Positions 25,084 through 42,613 of a stretch of 64,000 nucleotides of DNA are shown here, one piece after another. The notes beneath the pieces are model-generated. The model saw nothing but the letters and a program-made list of their open reading frames with translations. It did no database searches and had not been told where the DNA came from. How positions within the stretch are numbered: position 1 is the first letter of the stretch; each line of letters opens with the position of its first letter. Source of the stretch: SAR86 cluster bacterium (GTDB lineage: Bacteria; Pseudomonadota; Gammaproteobacteria; Magnimaribacterales; TMED112); contig QOPD01000005.1 of the NCBI GenBank assembly GCA_003331605.1, forward strand, positions 4,437 through 68,436. Direction: 5' to 3'. A program made the position numbers and the translations under genes.

Positions 25084-25626
25084 ATGGAAACTTTAAGCGA
25101 ACTAATACTTCTTCTTGGTCAGTTTTTATCTGATTCTTTAAACTACCTCATGCATTCCATAAGCTTTTATATCCAGACAAGTTTAGAAAGCATCTCCCCA
25201 AGCAGCAGTGAAATCTCCTCGTATGCACCGTGGGCTGGTGAGTCATATGTTGGACGACTTACTGGGCTATTTTTTGTAATCATATTTTTTGGTTTGCCAA
25301 TATGGATAGTTTTAATTGTTAATTTTTTTAAAAACAGACGAGCAAAACTAGTACATGATACTTTGCAAATTGCATTACAAAACGGTCAAGAACTATCTGT
25401 TGATGTCATCAAATCTCTTCCTGGATATGAGGGAGAAAAGAAAAAAGACTCCAATCAAGCATTCACTACTACCGGTACTGGGCTGGGTCTAATTTTCTTT
25501 GGGCTTCTATTATTTCAGAGCTTTTACAACCCACTCTCAGGGATCGGTGCATTGATCTTCTTTATTGGTTTAGCTGAATTAGTTGGGAAGTACATTATTA
25601 AAAAAGATAGACCAGCTAATGTTTAA
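25084..25626 (+). CDS. membrane protein with DUF6249-like region
   Basis: TM, then KNRRAKLVHDTLQIALQNG, then two C-terminal TMs; precedes the ECF sigma gene. The DUF name is recalled, not searched. Confidence 0.6.
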   Translation: METLSELILLLGQFLSDSLNYLMHSISFYIQTSLESISPSSSEISSYAPWAGESYVGRLTGLFFVIIFFGLPIWIVLIVNFFKNRRAKLVHDTLQIALQNGQELSVDVIKSLPGYEGEKKKDSNQAFTTTGTGLGLIFFGLLLFQSFYNPLSGIGALIFFIGLAELVGKYIIKKDRPANV

Positions 25627-26117
25627 TGATCTCAGATCAAGAAATAGTAGAGAAATGTATACAAGAAGGAAATGAACATTTTGAAGAGCTTATCAAAAGA
25701 CATTCAAACTATATCTTTGGTTTTATGATGCGTCTTACAGGTGGAAATCAAATGTTTGCTGAGGATTTAACACAAACTGCTTTTCTAAGAGCCATCTCTT
25801 ATCTCCAATCTTACAATCCAGCCAAAGAGTTTAGAGGGTGGCTTGCCACTATAGCAATTAATAGTTTCCGTACAGAAGTACGAAAACACGCAAAATATAC
25901 CTTAGAAGAAAATATGGATCACATTAGCGCCAACGAACAGAGGGGAGATAATCAAGATTTTTATAAATTACTAAGTCATCTGTCATCAGATGAGCGCACA
26001 ATCCTTACCATGAAGTACATTTACGACTATAAAAATGCCGACATAGCAAGAGATCTTAATATGAATTTAAATACAGTAAAGTCAGTAATTAAAAGAGCTC
26101 TAGAGAAGTTAAAATGA
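25626..26117 (+). CDS. ECF-family RNA polymerase sigma factor
   Basis: Region 2 AEDLTQTAFLRA...FRGWLATIAIN; region 4 YKNADIARDLNMNLNTVKSVIKRA. Confidence 0.93.
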   Translation: MISDQEIVEKCIQEGNEHFEELIKRHSNYIFGFMMRLTGGNQMFAEDLTQTAFLRAISYLQSYNPAKEFRGWLATIAINSFRTEVRKHAKYTLEENMDHISANEQRGDNQDFYKLLSHLSSDERTILTMKYIYDYKNADIARDLNMNLNTVKSVIKRALEKLK

Positions 26118-26458
26118 TGAACAATAACCTAAAAAATGCCATTGCAGACGAGAAGCTTAAACACTATAGAGTGAACAACCCTAATTTGTTAGCTAGATAC
26201 GTAGTAATGATGTCAAAGATAAGATCGTCAGCATCTATTGGTATTATTGATTTAATGTTTTTTCTTGTGTTTATAGTTATTGGTGCTATTAATCATGAAT
26301 TAATTTTTTCTATCATTAATAACTTCAACCAAATTTTTAACACTCCATTAGTTTTTATAGAAACTTACTTTTATCCAATTTGTATTTCACTAATACTAGT
26401 GACTATCTATAGTTACTTGCGAAATATGGATTCAAAAATATTTAATTTTTTTAAATAA
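26114..26458 (+). CDS. two-TM membrane protein, putative anti-sigma factor
   Basis: ATGA-coupled to the sigma gene; short cytoplasmic N-terminus plus two hydrophobic segments. Confidence 0.55.
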   Translation: MMNNNLKNAIADEKLKHYRVNNPNLLARYVVMMSKIRSSASIGIIDLMFFLVFIVIGAINHELIFSIINNFNQIFNTPLVFIETYFYPICISLILVTIYSYLRNMDSKIFNFFK

Positions 26459-26463
26459 ATAAA

Positions 26464-27423
26464 ATGATAAAAAAGTTTTTTATATTTATTTATTGCTTAT
26501 TTTTTTCTATAGACCTCATTGCTAGCAATGATGGATATGCCAGAAATGGTCAAGTTGATATTTTCTACAAAGATCTTGGTCCTGCTGAAAATACACCAGT
26601 AATCCTTGTAATGGGTCTAGGAGGCCAGCTAACCTATTGGCCTGATTACCTTTTGGATTTTTTAATCGAGGGTGGCTATCGCCCAATAATCTTCGATAAT
26701 CGGGATGTTGGCTTTTCCACTAGCTTTGAATCTGAAGGTAGGCCCAATGTATTTTTAAATTATCTTAAATTTTATTTAAACCTACCGATTAAATCTCCGT
26801 ATTCCCTTGATGATATGTCTAATGACATCATTGCTGTTTTAGATACCTTAGATATTAAAAAATCACACCTCATCGGCATGTCAATGGGTGGAATGATTTC
26901 TCAACATGTCTTGATAAATAATCCAAATCGATTCTATTCATACACACAAATTGCATCTATGGTTAAAGCGCCTGATGCAAGGACTGCTCCTAAAGGCCGT
27001 TTGGGTGAACTGCTTCGTAATAGGGCAGGACGTTCATTAACAGATGAGCAAAGAATTGATAGAGCAATAGAAATCTACACACTGCTAGGTGCAGGTAAAG
27101 AAAACTTCGATAATCCCGAATTTCGTCAAGGAGTAAAAAAAAATATAGAAAGAAGTCCCAATGACACAGGTTTTTCTAGGCAATTATTAGCCATCATTGC
27201 AGACCGCAAGCGAATTAATAATATTCAAAAGATTGCTACGCCAACACTTATTATTCACGGCACCCTAGATCCACTTATTCCCATATCAGAAGGAAAAAGA
27301 TCACACGAGTTGATAAAAAACAGCAGTTTTGTAGAAATTAAAAATATGGGTCATTTATTAAGCCAAGAAATCTTGGAAGAATTCAGTGAGCCCTTATCTC
27401 AACATCTAGCAAATAATAGTTAA
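26464..27423 (+). CDS. alpha/beta hydrolase (esterase) with signal peptide
   Basis: LVMGLGGQL, FDNRDVGFS, GMSMGG nucleophile elbow, HGTLDPL, NMGH. Confidence 0.92.
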   Translation: MIKKFFIFIYCLFFSIDLIASNDGYARNGQVDIFYKDLGPAENTPVILVMGLGGQLTYWPDYLLDFLIEGGYRPIIFDNRDVGFSTSFESEGRPNVFLNYLKFYLNLPIKSPYSLDDMSNDIIAVLDTLDIKKSHLIGMSMGGMISQHVLINNPNRFYSYTQIASMVKAPDARTAPKGRLGELLRNRAGRSLTDEQRIDRAIEIYTLLGAGKENFDNPEFRQGVKKNIERSPNDTGFSRQLLAIIADRKRINNIQKIATPTLIIHGTLDPLIPISEGKRSHELIKNSSFVEIKNMGHLLSQEILEEFSEPLSQHLANNS

Positions 27424-28235
27424 GACTTTACTGAGTAAGAACCTATTATTCGTAATTCGTCTGAAATATCTTCCAGAATATTAATTAATTCTTGTATTTT
27501 GCTGTCCTCATACCAACCTTCAAAATCTATGAAAAAAGTATGCAAATATTGATTATTTCTGGAGGGTCTCGTCTCTATGCGTGTCATATTTATATCTAAA
27601 TCTGAAAAAGGGTGCAAAATTTTCATTAGCGATCCAGGAGTATCAGCAATATTAACCATGATTGATGTCTTGTTTATTGATGAACGTTCCTCAATCATCT
27701 TGCCAATTACCAAAAATCTTGTTGAGTTATTAGATGAATCCTGTATATCTTTTACATGAGAATGTAATTTAAACAGTTTAATTGCATATTCATTGGCAAT
27801 ACAAAAGATATTAGCATTTTCACTTGCCATTTTGGCTGCCTCTGCCGTGCTTGTGCAGACAATTTTTTCTGCGTTTGGATAATTGCTACTCAACCAATAA
27901 TTACATTGACCAAGAACTTGCGGATGGCTAGCAATTTTTAGAACATTTATATCAGTAATATCTGCATTAGATGAGCAAAATGAATGACTAATGGCAAAAT
28001 TAAGTTCTTGTACGATTTTTAAATCATAATCTATAAGACAATTTAAAGATGAATTTATTACACCCTGATATGAATTTTCAAATGGAATGACGCCATAGTA
28101 GGAATGACTTAAAGCAACTTTTTGAAATATATCTTCAATTGAAGGAAGAGGAACATAAGCAAACTCTGAAGTAAATATTTCTTGCGCTGCTAAATTAGAG
28201 TTTGTACCTTCAGGGCCTAAGTAGAAAACTTTCAC
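27420..28235 (-). CDS. pheA: monofunctional prephenate dehydratase with ACT domain (no chorismate mutase domain)
   Basis: YLGPEGTNS, PFENSYQG, SHPQVLGQC, NSTRFLVI, NMTRIETRP; GTG start. Confidence 0.93.
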   Translation of the reverse strand: MKVFYLGPEGTNSNLAAQEIFTSEFAYVPLPSIEDIFQKVALSHSYYGVIPFENSYQGVINSSLNCLIDYDLKIVQELNFAISHSFCSSNADITDINVLKIASHPQVLGQCNYWLSSNYPNAEKIVCTSTAEAAKMASENANIFCIANEYAIKLFKLHSHVKDIQDSSNNSTRFLVIGKMIEERSSINKTSIMVNIADTPGSLMKILHPFSDLDINMTRIETRPSRNNQYLHTFFIDFEGWYEDSKIQELINILEDISDELRIIGSYSVKS

Positions 28236-28261
28236 GATTGGATTGTAATGATTTTTTACAC

Positions 28262-28286
28262 AAAAAAAAACTGAGCAAGCTCAGTT
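28262..28286 (-). terminator. intrinsic terminator
   Basis: Minus strand: AACTGAG-CTTG-CTCAG followed by 9 T. Confidence 0.9.
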
Positions 28287-28483
28287 CTTTTAAGTTCGAG
28301 ATCAGTGGGTGTCAAAAGTGAGATTATCTTTTGCATCCTTGGATAAGATCTCTTTTATCCTTGGTGGTCAAGTTTGCTTTTTTGCCGGCTAGCTTACTTG
28401 AACTTTCACCCTTCTGTTCTCTGCCTGTGGTTTCTTTCTAATTTGGGTTCTGCAGTTCCCTTCTTAGTCTGTTACCGCGAGGT
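28262..28483 (-). ncRNA. candidate ~220-nt structured non-coding RNA or leader, family unassigned
   Basis: About 40% GC by hand count, against very AT-rich flanks; several complementary stems; bounded by a sigma70 promoter and a terminator; no convincing long ORF. Confidence 0.65.
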
Positions 28484-28490
28484 AAGTACT

Positions 28491-28519
28491 AATTTACAAA
28501 AGAGAATTTCTTTACGCAA
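28491..28519 (-). promoter_or_regulatory. sigma70 promoter of the candidate RNA
   Basis: TTGCGT (28519-28514), 17 nt, TAAATT (28496-28491); A/T tracts upstream resemble an UP element. Confidence 0.65.
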
Positions 28520-28735
28520 GTGTAATGTAAAAAAAAATACTACTTTTTTTTTTATACTCTAGAACCCCATATATTTAATGGCTTATGTAGAATGATAAAA
28601 ATAAAAAAAGTTTAATTTATTCAATTATTATTTTTTCTTGTGATTAAAAAATAATCAAAGTGTTTATTAAATAACCAATATTTAATTATTTTTTTATCAA
28701 ATTTAAATCTATAATTTAATTAAAAGGAGATAACT

Positions 28736-29527
28736 ATGAGTTATGCAATTATTACCGGTCCTACTGCTGGTATTGGAAAAGCTATTTCTTATCAATTAGC
28801 TAAAAAAGGGTACAACCTTATTTTGGTTGCTCGCAGAGAAGAACGATTAAAGGACATCTCAAATGAACTGCAAAAGAAATTTAATATAAAGGTAGATTAT
28901 CTAAAAGAAGACCTAACAAACAAAGATGCACCACGAAATATATTTAACTATGTTGATCAAAATAATTTAGATGTTGAAGTTTTAATTCTTAACGCTGGCT
29001 ACCAGCACCACAAAAAATTTGAGGATGTATCCTTAGAGGACGAAGAAGATTGCTTAAGAGTCTTAGGCCTTTCGGTCATTATGCAAAGCAAACTGTTCAT
29101 TAAAAAATTAATTAATCGTGGTGGCGGTAGAATAATGGTAGTCTCATCTGTTGCTGGATTTGCACCTCCGTCTGGAGAGTTTGCTACTCTATATGGGCCT
29201 GTAAAAACTTTCATGAATCGATTTGTTGAAGCTTTGAATGTTGCATATAACAAACACAATATCTATGCAACAGCATTATGTCCAGGTTTTACTATCACAG
29301 AATTTCATAGCGTTAGTGGCACGCAAGATAGGATGGATAAAGTGCCAAAATTTATGAAGTATTCAGCAGAACACGTCGCTAAAGAGGGAATAGATGGAAT
29401 GTTTAAAAATAAAGAGATAGTAATTTCTGGTGGTATATATAGATTTTTAGTTAGTGGCTTAAGTTATTTGCCTAAATCCTTTATACGGTTTATTGGTAAT
29501 AAAATTGCAGGTGGAAGATATGAGTAG
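28736..29527 (+). CDS. short-chain dehydrogenase/reductase
   Basis: ITGPTAGIG, LVARR, ILNAG, YGPVK, LCPGFT; SD AGGAG. Confidence 0.93.
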   Translation: MSYAIITGPTAGIGKAISYQLAKKGYNLILVARREERLKDISNELQKKFNIKVDYLKEDLTNKDAPRNIFNYVDQNNLDVEVLILNAGYQHHKKFEDVSLEDEEDCLRVLGLSVIMQSKLFIKKLINRGGGRIMVVSSVAGFAPPSGEFATLYGPVKTFMNRFVEALNVAYNKHNIYATALCPGFTITEFHSVSGTQDRMDKVPKFMKYSAEHVAKEGIDGMFKNKEIVISGGIYRFLVSGLSYLPKSFIRFIGNKIAGGRYE

Positions 29528-39289: not shown

Positions 39290-40447
39290 TTATCGTTTAG
39301 ATTTTTTGGTTTCGTCTCTATGCTTTTTAAGATATTTCATAAAGGGCGTTCCACCAGTGCCTCTAACTGTAGAACCTCCAGTACCAAATAGTGTGTTTTT
39401 AACATTTTGTTGATGAATGTAATCTGCAGCATATTGCAAATGCTGAGTTCGAAAGCTTGCCATCTCTTCAAGACATTCATTAATTAGAGAATTAATTTTG
39501 CTACTTGTAAGTGCAGCATCCACAACTTTAGATTCTTCTTCTACTGTTCGGATGAAATTTCTATGATTGTTTGGCATGTATATTTTCATTTCATCAAGAT
39601 AATCTCGTAATTCGTCTTTTTCATGACGAACATTAAACAATGCATCAAGGGATGGAATAATGGAGCTCTGTGCACCAGTTTCACCTCTAAATAATTGTGG
39701 TTTATCTTGAAAGAAACCATCATAAATTAGACCTTCAGGTAAATCTGGATTATTTTTCCATCCAAATATGTATGGTCTTACTCTGTGATAGTAGATATAT
39801 GGATCGCATTTCTCAGGCATTAATCTAAAGATTTCATTAACCTTTACCATAGATTTTTTTATCTTTTGTAACTCTTCTGCCAATAAGGTTTCATCGTTCC
39901 ACAGTTCATCATCTACAATTTTAGCTACACTTGATATTGCTGGACTTGCAGCATCTTCAATGCAAACATGGATTGTCACAAACCAGTCTTCATCGATACC
40001 ACCTAAAAAATTATTGATTAGAGCTACATTATCTAAGGAAATATCTTCAGATTCATTTATTTTGTTCCAATTGTGTAAGCAATAGGAGGCATAACTCAGA
40101 ATAGGAGGGCGCTTAAACTTTTCTGAGAGCTTAACCCAAGGTGTACTAATGTTGTGTGGTAAATTTTGGACAGGCTTTAGATCACCCCATACATATGCAT
40201 GAGCTATAAATGAGAGTTGCGCAAATAGTAATTCTTGCTCCCCTAGAGAGTGATCATCTAAATGTAGATCTAGGGTTTTTATTTTGTCTATAGTGGGTCG
40301 TATTTGATTGGTAAGAAGGAGTTTTGGAAGCTCTGCTGCCACATTGCTAATTATATCTGTACTAGTAGTTTTATTTTGAACAACTCTTAAAGGAGTTGCT
40401 TCGGGAAGAAATCCTCGTTTTGTTATATATTTTTTTAGCTTGACCAT
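39290..40447 (-). CDS. indoleamine 2,3-dioxygenase-family heme protein
   Basis: FIAHAYVWG, PPILSYASYCLHNW, GETGAQSS, FRTQHLQYAADYI (proximal His), GTGGTPFMKYLK; all correspond to IDO1 motifs. Confidence 0.9.
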   Translation of the reverse strand: MVKLKKYITKRGFLPEATPLRVVQNKTTSTDIISNVAAELPKLLLTNQIRPTIDKIKTLDLHLDDHSLGEQELLFAQLSFIAHAYVWGDLKPVQNLPHNISTPWVKLSEKFKRPPILSYASYCLHNWNKINESEDISLDNVALINNFLGGIDEDWFVTIHVCIEDAASPAISSVAKIVDDELWNDETLLAEELQKIKKSMVKVNEIFRLMPEKCDPYIYYHRVRPYIFGWKNNPDLPEGLIYDGFFQDKPQLFRGETGAQSSIIPSLDALFNVRHEKDELRDYLDEMKIYMPNNHRNFIRTVEEESKVVDAALTSSKINSLINECLEEMASFRTQHLQYAADYIHQQNVKNTLFGTGGSTVRGTGGTPFMKYLKKHRDETKKSKR

Positions 40448-40487: not shown

Positions 40488-40539
40488 TTGCAAATGAGAA
40501 TCATTCTCAATAATATACTAAATGAGAATCATTCTCATT
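40488..40539 (+). promoter_or_regulatory. sigma70 promoter with two tandem Fur boxes
   Basis: TTGCAA (40488), 17 nt, TAATAT (40511); boxes AATGAGAATCATTCTCAAT (40493-40511) and AATGAGAATCATTCTCATT (40521-40539). Confidence 0.88.
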
Positions 40540-40549
40540 TAAAAATCAG

Positions 40550-42613
40550 ATGAATTTATACAATAAATTGAAAATTATTTTTCTTCTAACAATTATCAAT
40601 TTTGTTTGTGGTGAAAATGAATCTGCTCTAGAAGAGCTTGTAGTAAAAGGAAAAGTTCTATATCAAGACCAAGTCAGTGCTTTAAAAACTCCAGTTCCGA
40701 TACTCAATGTCCCTCAAACTGTTTCCATCATTACCGATGAAGAAATCTTAAAAAAAGGTTTTAACAACATTGAAGATATTATTAGATTTGTTCCGGGTGT
40801 CACTAGCTCACAAGGTGAAGGGCATAGAGACGCAATTGTCATACGAGGCATTAGATCTACTGCTGATTTCTATCAAGATGGCATACGAGATGATGTTCAG
40901 TATTTTCGTTCTTTATACAACGTTGATCAATTAGAAATACTGCGTGGTCCTAACGCTCTGCTTTTTGGTAGAGGTGGTACTGGTGGCATTGTGAATCGTG
41001 TGACAAAAAAAGCTGTAACATCAGAAAACTTTACTCGTATGAATTTAGGGTTTAATACTTTTGGAGCGACAGACTTAGCAATAGATAGTAATCATATCTT
41101 AAGTATAAACTCTGGATTGCGTATTAACCTACATACCGATCAGCTGGAGAATCACCGTGATTATTTCTTTGGTAATAGGATGGGTATTAACCCTTCACTA
41201 ACACTAATTATAGATTCTGAGCTAACTCTTAACCTCTCATACGAATACATCAACCATGAAAGATTTATCGATAGAGGGATCCCTACGCTCAATGGTAGAC
41301 CAGATACAAACTTAAGAGACACTGTATTTGGCAATCCTGATTTTAACTATCACACCGTAGAAGCAGCTATTTATAGAGTACAAGCAAGCTATCAAATGTC
41401 AGATACATTTAAGGCAAACTTCAACCTTACAGCAAATAATTTTGACAAAGTTTATCAGAACATTTACCCATCAGATTACGATGGTAGTCTGGTATTAATG
41501 GACGGATATTTAGATCCAACCAAACGAGACAACCTTATTTTTTCTGGTAATCTTATAAATGAAATAAGTTCTGGTAAGGTTATTCATACTTTGTTGTACG
41601 GTATTGAATACATTCAAACCACCAATGAAAATTCACGCTTGGATGCATATTGGTCAGCAACACAGGACGATACTGATTTATTTTTTATTGCAACACCTAT
41701 CGATTTTTCTATTAATGGTGGCGGTATAGATACCTATTTAAGTTACTTGGCTCCTAATAGTAAAACTCATTCAAAAATAACTGTCTCTTCATTTTATTTG
41801 CAAGATCAAATAGATCTTAGCGAACGATGGAAGTTTATTGTAGGAGCTCGACTAGATCAATTTGATATTAGTGTTGATGATCTCATCAACAACACCTCAG
41901 AGAAAAAAAATGACAATACTATATCTCCTAGAGGAGGATTAATATTTAAGCCACAAGACAATGTATCAATGTACCTAAGTTACAGTGAAAGCTTTTTACC
42001 AAGATCAGGAGAACAATATAAAAAATTAAATTCCAGTGCAGCTCGCTTGGATCCCGATGTTTTTGAAAGTAAAGAAATTGGGATAAAGATACTCTTTAAT
42101 AATCAGTTAAATCTAACAGCTGCTTATTTTAACAGCGAGCAAATTAGAGCAGCTCGGGATAATATTTCTGGTGAAACATTTAACATCAGGGGTCTAAGTG
42201 TTGATGGTTATGAACTCGAAGTTAAAGGCGACATTGGACAAAAATTTTCATATGTTATTGCCAGTTACAGCTCATTAAATGGTAAAACCCAAACAGGAGG
42301 CACTCCTCGAGAAATCCCTGAATTTACCTTTTCTGCAAATGCCCAATACCAGCTGACAAACAAGTTCAATCTTGGTTTTGGTTATTTATCTCAAGGCGAA
42401 TCATTAATTATTGATGACAATGAGAATTTAACTTTACCTCAGTATAGCCGTCTAGATTTATCTGGTTCGTACAACATCAGCGATCGGCTTACACTGCGTC
42501 TACATCTTGATAATGTGCTCGATGAACTTTATTTTCCACATGCTCACGCCGTGCATCAAGTTAGCGTCGGGGAGCCATTCAACGCTCGAATTGTATTTAG
42601 CTATTATTTTTAG
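40550..42613 (+). CDS. TonB-dependent receptor (siderophore-receptor type)
   Basis: LEELVVKG (TonB-box-like), PQTVSII, LEILRGPNALLFGRG.TGG.VN.VTK, C-terminal aromatic residue (SYYF). Confidence 0.95.
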   Translation: MNLYNKLKIIFLLTIINFVCGENESALEELVVKGKVLYQDQVSALKTPVPILNVPQTVSIITDEEILKKGFNNIEDIIRFVPGVTSSQGEGHRDAIVIRGIRSTADFYQDGIRDDVQYFRSLYNVDQLEILRGPNALLFGRGGTGGIVNRVTKKAVTSENFTRMNLGFNTFGATDLAIDSNHILSINSGLRINLHTDQLENHRDYFFGNRMGINPSLTLIIDSELTLNLSYEYINHERFIDRGIPTLNGRPDTNLRDTVFGNPDFNYHTVEAAIYRVQASYQMSDTFKANFNLTANNFDKVYQNIYPSDYDGSLVLMDGYLDPTKRDNLIFSGNLINEISSGKVIHTLLYGIEYIQTTNENSRLDAYWSATQDDTDLFFIATPIDFSINGGGIDTYLSYLAPNSKTHSKITVSSFYLQDQIDLSERWKFIVGARLDQFDISVDDLINNTSEKKNDNTISPRGGLIFKPQDNVSMYLSYSESFLPRSGEQYKKLNSSAARLDPDVFESKEIGIKILFNNQLNLTAAYFNSEQIRAARDNISGETFNIRGLSVDGYELEVKGDIGQKFSYVIASYSSLNGKTQTGGTPREIPEFTFSANAQYQLTNKFNLGFGYLSQGESLIIDDNENLTLPQYSRLDLSGSYNISDRLTLRLHLDNVLDELYFPHAHAVHQVSVGEPFNARIVFSYYF

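Follow-up and report, generated by a model that had tools for sequence, protein, structure and literature searches.

An IMES-1 RNA gene upstream of pheA in a SAR86 cluster bacterium and the possible self-association of its apical loops

The DNA analysed here, a stretch of 64,000 nt from a SAR86 cluster bacterium (assembly GCA_003331605.1, contig QOPD01000005.1, positions 4,437 to 68,436), is referred to below as the window, and this report concerns an RNA gene in one of its intergenic spacers. The spacer, 500 nt long, is bounded by a short-chain dehydrogenase gene (28736..29527, plus strand) on one side and by pheA, the prephenate dehydratase gene, on the minus strand (Table 1). It holds a unit of ~222 nt on the minus strand, from about 28483 to 28262, in which a promoter is followed by a structured core and by a 7-bp hairpin with nine U residues. 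The GC content is 0.40-0.42 over 28300..28499 and 0.11-0.24 in the upstream spacer (34.7% in the whole window). A sequence-only reading of this DNA, made without database searches, had delimited such a unit and had suggested two roles for it: an abundant trans-acting RNA comparable to the marine IMES motifs, or a two-state leader controlling pheA. The RNA is a copy of the known family IMES-1 and, as a discovery, is not new.

In an Rfam scan of the whole window, IMES-1 was the sole match other than tRNAs. The model RF02034 aligned over its full length (positions 1-191 of 191) with 28286..28477 on the minus strand, with a score of 140 bits (E = 2.7e-30) where the curated threshold is 81. A permissive scan of 28100..28750 returned, besides IMES-1, only STnc50 at E < 1 (21.5 bits, threshold 55, E = 0.48), a match taken as chance. 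None of the 6S, tmRNA, RNase P, SRP or riboswitch models reached its curated threshold in the window, in agreement with the sequence-only reading, which had found no likeness to them; a 6S-like role for IMES-1 was set aside, being unsupported by structure or by Rfam. All helices of the IMES-1 consensus structure, which consists of a 5′ hairpin domain and a long-range helix around three hairpins, form in the window sequence, and the conserved blocks GGGUGAAAG, CCACCAAGG, AAGAGA, CAAGG, AAUCUCAC and CUCGAA are all present. The marine source agrees as well: relatives occur in SAR86 single-amplified genomes (SAGs), metagenome-assembled genomes (MAGs) and marine metagenomes, and the pheA-linked locus itself was seen again in TARA and other ocean assemblies. 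Among the complete genome copies, which score 127-203 bits, the window copy ranks low with its 140 bits, and it shows no essential difference from the family; its distinguishing marks are a 3-bp GGG/CCC P1b stem, one additional base in CAAGGAUGC, weaker promoter boxes and a P3 loop in which two palindromes overlap. The comparison with IMES-type RNAs in the sequence-only reading was thus well aimed, the RNA being IMES-1 itself, and the novelty that this reading implied is refuted by the Rfam match, an outcome it had itself named for such a match. IMES-1 transcripts were reportedly found in 2009 to be very abundant in marine metatranscriptomes, above 5S rRNA, and no host or function is said to have been assigned then. 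The family was described in that year (Weinberg, Perreault, Meyer & Breaker, Nature 462:656, as listed in ref. 12 of PMC5737381). A literature search for IMES-1, for IMES RNAs and for SAR86 together with IMES returned nothing relevant, the 2009 description lying outside the literature covered.

The window and 55 further distinct copies form a set of 56 sequences (alignment A2), in all of which promoter boxes and terminator stand at fixed positions and A/T tracts are present. The −35 box is TTGACA in most clades, TTGCAA in the clade of the isolate HIMB1674 and TTGAAA in a divergent clade that has the hexamer CUUAAG in its P1b apical loop (the CUUAAG clade); the spacer between the boxes is 16-17 nt. 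Directly upstream of the −35 box, the homologues have a T-tract and then an A-tract, the proximal A-tract being replaced by ACATTACAC in the window clade, and we only infer that such tracts might enhance the promoter. Transcription is predicted, from the promoter spacing, to start at about 28483, which agrees with a conserved TAC(C) about 6 nt ahead of position 1 of the Rfam model. All 56 copies retain the terminator stem, in which one pair shows a compensatory change in the window clade; outside this clade the stem is CAGAGC..GCUCUG, and in complete copies the hairpin is followed by eight or nine U. The minus-strand promoter of the sequence-only reading (TTGCGT and TAAATT, 17 nt apart), its ~40% GC RNA in AT-rich flanks and its 7-bp terminator hairpin with 9 U were all found, the boxes at the position occupied by the family promoters in the 55 homologues.

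Table 1. Features of the IMES-1 locus in the window
Feature	Position	Strand	Remarks
A/T tracts upstream of −35	28520..28553	-	A10 28544..28553, T9 28529..28537; resemble an UP element
−35 box TTGCGT	28514..28519	-	position matches family −35 boxes
−10 box TAAATT	28491..28496	-	17 nt after −35; aligns with TAATAT/TATATT/TATAAT in all homologues
IMES-1 RNA core	28286..28477	-	Rfam RF02034 model positions 1-191
5′ domain	28429..28476	-	P1 28474..28476/28429..28431; P1a 28464..28467/28438..28441; P1b 28458..28460/28445..28447
Hexamer CUGCAG	28450..28455	-	self-complementary, in the 10-nt P1b apical loop AA-CUGCAG-AA
Long-range helix P2	28307..28411	-	GGGUG 28407..28411 with CACCC 28307..28311; encloses P3, P4 and P5
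Hairpin P3	28368..28401	-	UCAAGU 28396..28401 with ACUUGA 28368..28373
P3 apical-loop hexamers	28384..28393	-	GCUAGC 28388..28393 overlapping GCCGGC 28384..28389
Conserved junction CCACCAAGG	28359..28367	-	CCACCAAG identical in 56/56 sequences
Hairpin P4	28341..28360	-	GGAUAA/UUAUCC, loop AAGAGAUC
Hairpin P5	28313..28333	-	CAAAAG/CUUUUG, loop AUAAUCUCA
Intrinsic terminator	28262..28286	-	7-bp stem 28280..28286/28269..28275, 4-nt CUUG loop, U9 28262..28270
pheA, prephenate dehydratase (PDT + ACT domains)	27420..28235	-	GTG start 26 nt past the U-run; not part of the RNA

The secondary structure was scored on 43 distinct transcripts aligned with MAFFT (alignment A1), and comprised the Rfam helices, an added helix P1b, the terminator and a loop-loop contact. 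Covariation among relatives, the check that the sequence-only reading had proposed, is evident: 25 of the 50 base pairs have changes on both sides, and the covariation score of 0.332 was reached by none of 500 shuffles (0.115 in shuffles). Standard pairs occupy 90.7% of the cells, a share that drops to 27-50% once partners are shifted by 1-3 columns. For the predicted transcript of 222 nt (28483..28262) the minimum free energy (MFE) is -55.5 kcal/mol, better than 200 of 200 dinucleotide shuffles (z = -3.32), and the MFE fold of this transcript, computed without comparative input, recovers P1a, the GGG/CCC stem on a 10-nt loop, P3, P4, P5 and the GGGUG/CACCC pairing. In the 5′ domain P1 and P1a covary, and the inner pair of P1b, a helix outside the Rfam structure, is standard in all 56 sequences (CG 35, UG 15, GC 3, UA 3). 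Changes on both sides affect seven of the nine pairs of P3, four of the six pairs of P4, a hairpin that RNAalifold finds independently, and two pairs of P5, where every cell pairs. The last G of the junction CCACCAAGG is U in the CUUAAG clade. The stems TCAAGT/ACTTGA, GGATAA/TTATCC and CAAAAG/CTTTTG, which the sequence-only reading had found by eye, correspond to the Rfam helices P3, P4 and P5 and carry compensatory changes. Its GGGTG/CACCC pairing also exists, and is AGGUG/CACCU by compensatory change in L030 and L035 (L numbers denote the loci of the copies); the alternative fold to which it had been ascribed does not, for this pairing is the long-range helix P2. Three further pairings were lost on comparison: the U of GGUG becomes C or A without compensation and CCACC stays constant, so that the stem GGTG/CACC fails; AAGTTC/GAACTT occurs in the window clade only and is absent in other clades; and the 3′ tail GATCTC, proposed as a partner of the loop sequence GAGATC, is not conserved.

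The P4 loop has an invariant GAGA and the P5 loop an invariant UCUC, and a GAGA(U)/(A)UCUC pairing can be drawn in every sequence. Its fifth pair is AU in 11, UA in 3 and GU in 1 of the 43 sequences, with A-A in the other 28; the window has GAGAU/AUCUC. A contact between these loops, within one molecule or between two, is possible. In the MFE fold, an invariant GAGA (28421..28418, transcript positions 63-66) pairs with UCUC of the tail (28301..28298, positions 183-186) and lengthens P2 past the Rfam structure; the GAG/CUC part of this extension is possible in most clades and hardly varies. Long invariant unpaired segments of this kind of RNA, for example CCACCAAGG or GGGUGAAAG, together with a promoter and terminator of its own and a U-tail, could also serve a conventional base-pairing small RNA (sRNA) that regulates mRNAs in trans. 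We regard such a role as improbable, because the seven covarying helices and the closed multi-helix junction of this ~200-nt RNA go far beyond the make-up of a typical seed-type sRNA.

One genome per bacterial or archaeal species was searched with a 20-base pattern built from conserved blocks of IMES-1. Of the 50 loci obtained, 45 were confirmed as IMES-1 by Rfam (94-203 bits). The five loci outside Gammaproteobacteria (L003, L004, L027, L031 and L040, in unrelated phyla) have no Rfam match and are ascribed to chance, their number being about that expected. A phage origin was likewise rejected, since the only match on a viral contig (L051) lacks an Rfam match and is due to chance. The confirmed loci bear the titles of SAR86 cluster or gammaproteobacterial MAGs, except for one 'Pseudohongiella' SAG and one 3.2-kb 'Bdellovibrionota' MAG contig. 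These two records (L005, 'Pseudohongiella sp.', and L036) are likely mislabelled or misbinned; the acyl-CoA dehydrogenase context of L036 is the same as that of the SAR86 locus L034. IMES-1 is also present in the complete genome of HIMB1674, the first cultured member of SAR86 (PMC11582366), and the paper describing this isolate does not mention non-coding RNAs. The nearest relatives of the window copy are L030 and L035, whose pheA proteins are 93% and 83% identical to that of the window. The exact pheA protein of the window was found again in TARA and other ocean assemblies, where the spacer differs by 0-2 bases; being strain variants, these spacers add no covariation.

Four SAR86 species have tandem pairs of IMES-1 about 300 bp apart (L009 1619..2113, L013 2213..2729, L043 6485..6991 and L046 2991..3484), and each tandem copy has its own promoter and its own terminator. 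Further cases of multiple copies are a pair 3.4 kb apart in L025 and two distinct sites on the contig of L041 and L042, while the L010 and L018 sequences overlap and represent one contig site, not two copies. The strong family promoter with its A/T tracts and the tandem copies fit the high abundance that is said to have been found in 2009. When metagenomes were searched for IMES-1-like sequences whose P1b loop hexamer has A or U at its third position and any base at its fourth, 25 loci were returned; 21 were IMES-1, all 21 with CUUAAG, and four were unrelated chance matches. Eight of the 21 were checked with Rfam and scored 106-112 bits. This divergent clade (21 loci within L052-L076, e.g. L055 5357..5583) has CCACCAAGU for CCACCAAGG and lies on contigs of 36-40% GC; its neighbours are LamB/YcsF (or TypA) on one side and a converging MFS transporter gene on the other.

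The divergent clade also bears on the CAAGGA(U/G) repeats, which might bind CsrA or mimic Shine-Dalgarno sites and so titrate a partner, in the manner of CsrB/RsmZ-type sponges. The CsrA consensus obtained by systematic evolution of ligands by exponential enrichment (SELEX) is RUACARGGAUGU, and CCAAGGAUG of the window fits its core; the two CAAGG motifs lie ~23 nt apart, and a high abundance would suit a sponge. However, there are only these two motifs, the first of which has its GG within the P4 stem. L010, L048 and most members of the CUUAAG clade have GGC for GGA, and in that clade the first motif is AAGU. Both the sponge and the Shine-Dalgarno mimic, which appear very unlikely, were dropped because GGA is not conserved. 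No csrA, hfq or proQ was detected by tblastn in the 64-kb window and the fetched loci, too small a genome sample for this result to count.

The position of the RNA directly upstream of pheA on the same strand, with the terminator 26 nt before the GTG start, raises the question of a cis-acting leader, that is, an attenuator or riboswitch in which terminator and antiterminator folds would answer Phe, prephenate or chorismate. There is no good separate promoter between the RNA and pheA: the only promoter-like element in 28236..28261 is TACAAT (28242..28247, minus strand), 6 nt before the GTG, and it has no usable −35 box. The 26-nt layout from U-run to pheA is conserved in L030 and L035. As judged from this arrangement, pheA would be either leaderless here or fed by read-through from IMES-1. 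Against a leader, IMES-1 adjoins pheA only in the window, L030 and L035, so that a conserved linkage failed to appear, and the other 53 of the 56 distinct copies have other neighbours. The genome position of IMES-1 differs by clade. In 16 loci pyruvate kinase lies downstream and an IDO-like gene diverges upstream, and in 10 loci, including HIMB1674, a gene for ETF-ubiquinone oxidoreductase precedes IMES-1 and a DUF1285 gene converges on it from 26 nt downstream. Other copies lie between an alkyl-sulfatase-like gene and a converging acyl-CoA dehydrogenase gene, or between LamB/YcsF and a converging MFS transporter gene. In three of the five recurring contexts the downstream gene is thus on the opposite strand, and since a 5′ leader cannot regulate such a gene, the IMES-1 family does not act as a cis-regulator. 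Every context retains the terminator stem, and the alignments of 43 and 56 sequences showed no conserved helix that would compete with it. Nor is there a conserved leader peptide or open reading frame (ORF), the ATG in CCAAGGAUG being GGAGC in other clades, and Rfam classes RF02034 as a 'Gene' family, not as cis-regulatory. The window RNA resembles the pheA attenuator of Escherichia coli (pheL) in its place ahead of pheA and in its final hairpin with a U-run, but it lacks a Phe-rich leader peptide, and neither an antiterminator nor the linkage to pheA is conserved. The two-state pheA leader put forward in the sequence-only reading is accordingly abandoned as extremely unlikely. An IDO-like gene, of the type that neighbours IMES-1 in other clades, is also found in the window (39290..40447, minus strand); it was considered as an older insertion site, and neither IMES-1 nor a remnant of it lies beside this gene.

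Two apical loops of IMES-1 change in sequence and stay self-complementary. In the P1b loop most sequences have AA-CUGCAG-A(C/A), the HIMB1674 clade has AA-CUCGAG-AC and the divergent clade has the hexamer CUUAAG. The two adjacent central columns of this loop in A2 are GC in 34, UA in 13 and CG in 9 sequences, complementary in 56 of 56; the central tetramer is self-complementary in all 56 and the hexamer in 52. The P3 loop has a self-complementary hexamer just 5′ of an A-tract in all 56 sequences, in the forms GUCGAC, GCUAGC and GUUAAC and in the G-U variants GUCGAU, GUCGGC and GUUGAC, which are exactly the three of the 18 single changes to GUCGAC that keep self-pairing. Where the P3-loop hexamers fall into one set of MAFFT columns (44 of 56 sequences), the inner pairs are UA 32, CG 11, UG 1 and CG 30, UA 13, UG 1. 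Because adjacent bases of a loop cannot pair within one chain, intermolecular loop pairing is the simplest reading of their covariation. In the window the predicted unpaired probability is 0.91 for the P1b hexamer and 0.99 for GCCGGC of the P3 loop. A 1-nt insertion in L035 (5863..6091) breaks GCUAGC (GCUUAGC), while GCCGGC is kept and AAGCUU is gained; GCCGGC may be the working palindrome in the clade of the window and L035. Palindromic loops of IMES-1 were not mentioned in the literature searched, in which IMES-1 itself never came up.

The loop palindromes could instead be protein sites at the DNA level, or products of chance, in an IMES-1 RNA that stays monomeric, for example within a ribonucleoprotein or as a ribozyme. 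By our own estimate, a 6-nt palindrome arises by chance in ~20-25% of 20-nt loops, and the independent changes amount to a handful, with the first palindrome weakened in the L033 clade. On the other side, two distinct loops both remain self-complementary through different sequences, GC is replaced by CG without a paired intermediate, and the single-base variants of GUCGAC that were seen all keep Watson-Crick or G-U self-pairing; a change of sequence with its symmetry kept is also not what is expected of a DNA operator. A monomeric RNA is on this evidence a doubtful explanation that nevertheless deserves weight. Self-assembly of IMES-1 is a credible proposal that we put forward tentatively: through two kissing loops, and possibly a third GAGA/UCUC pair, the RNA could form symmetric homodimers, rings or chains in SAR86.

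The explanation we favour is as follows. A sigma-70-type promoter and an intrinsic terminator delimit the ~222-nt unit, and the RNA folds into a 5′ hairpin domain (P1, P1a and P1b) and a 3′ domain in which P2 surrounds P3, P4 and P5. The RNA would act in trans, as RNA and without a tie to pheA. Its P1b and P3 apical loops could bind their counterparts in other IMES-1 molecules and so build homodimers or larger symmetric assemblies, to which the invariant GAGA of P4 and UCUC of P5 might add a loop-loop contact, within one molecule or between two. The best account of the comparative data would accordingly be a strongly transcribed, trans-acting, compactly folded and self-associating RNA. Taken as a whole, the window locus is very probably a single-copy, stand-alone IMES-1 gene of the SAR86 type, which has its own promoter and terminator and encodes a folded, trans-acting RNA that is not tied to pheA and whose loops may pair between molecules.

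Several observations weigh against this account. Independent substitution events are few, about two in the P1b loop and about three double and three wobble changes in the P3 loop. The four sequences of the L033 clade have AUGCAG, which cuts the self-complementary core of the P1b loop to 4 nt. The P3-loop hexamers are offset in 12 of the 56 sequences, which brings the overall figure to 80.7% and means that the comparison is partly anchored by eye. The promoter boxes of the window are weaker than the family consensus and fall below the threshold of a generic promoter scan, and the 5′ and 3′ ends of the transcript and its abundance in this organism are inferred. Finally, pheA may depend on read-through in this lineage, which would be a passive form of coupling.

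Two other sites in the window are recorded here. Identical 17-mers AATGAGAATCATTCTCA at 40493..40509 and 40521..40537 (plus strand) form a Fur-box-like inverted repeat in the 100-nt spacer from the IDO-like ORF to an ORF of 687 amino acids (40550..42613, plus strand), which may encode a TonB-dependent receptor. An ECF-type sigma factor (Sigma70_r2/r4) is encoded in 25084..26458 (plus strand), with a DUF6249 protein on one side and on the other a small membrane ORF that may be an anti-sigma factor; the Pfam labels of this region come from the precomputed annotation of identical contigs.

For annotation, the apparently empty 500-nt spacer holds a known RNA gene, which should be labelled IMES-1 and not as a pheA leader. 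The remaining interest of the locus lies in the link to SAR86 and to a cultured host, in the rejection of the pheA leader and in the self-association hypothesis. IMES-1 is placed in SAR86 (Magnimaribacterales), a group of bacteria that ranks among the most abundant in the surface ocean, and its presence in the cultured HIMB1674 (PMC11582366) opens its expression, partners and phenotype to direct study. Loops that change their sequence and yet stay self-complementary provide a concrete and cheap hypothesis on the behaviour of the molecule.

The loops of IMES-1 can be compared with those of other RNAs. The dimerisation initiation site of HIV-1 is a hairpin loop of 9-10 nt in which a 6-nt palindrome lies between unpaired purines, AA-GCGCGC-A. 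The P1b loop AA-CUGCAG-A(A/C) is alike in architecture only; the HIV-1 site is an element of a viral genomic RNA, and there is no homology between the two. A closer parallel is offered by OLE, GOLLD and ROOL, which like IMES-1 are structured bacterial RNAs without an assigned function; the 2009 paper that reported the discovery of IMES-1 also reported that of GOLLD. In GOLLD and OLE, covariation of adjacent nucleotides between palindromes (GC/CG; GGCC/GAUC/AGCU) backed the intermolecular kissing loops seen by cryo-electron microscopy (cryo-EM) (Kretsch et al., Nature 2025; PMC12286853). The signature of GOLLD loop L21a (GC/CG) and OLE loop L9.3 (GGCC/GAUC/AGCU), palindromes with covarying adjacent central nucleotides, is that seen in the IMES-1 loops. 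OLE, GOLLD and ROOL are 580-830 nt long and IMES-1 ~200 nt; IMES-1 has no homology to them in sequence or structure and occurs in one marine order only, and their oligomers were seen by cryo-EM whereas oligomerisation of IMES-1 is a proposal drawn from sequence comparison. If self-assembly is true, the OLE, GOLLD and ROOL assemblies would have in IMES-1 a small marine counterpart of very high abundance.

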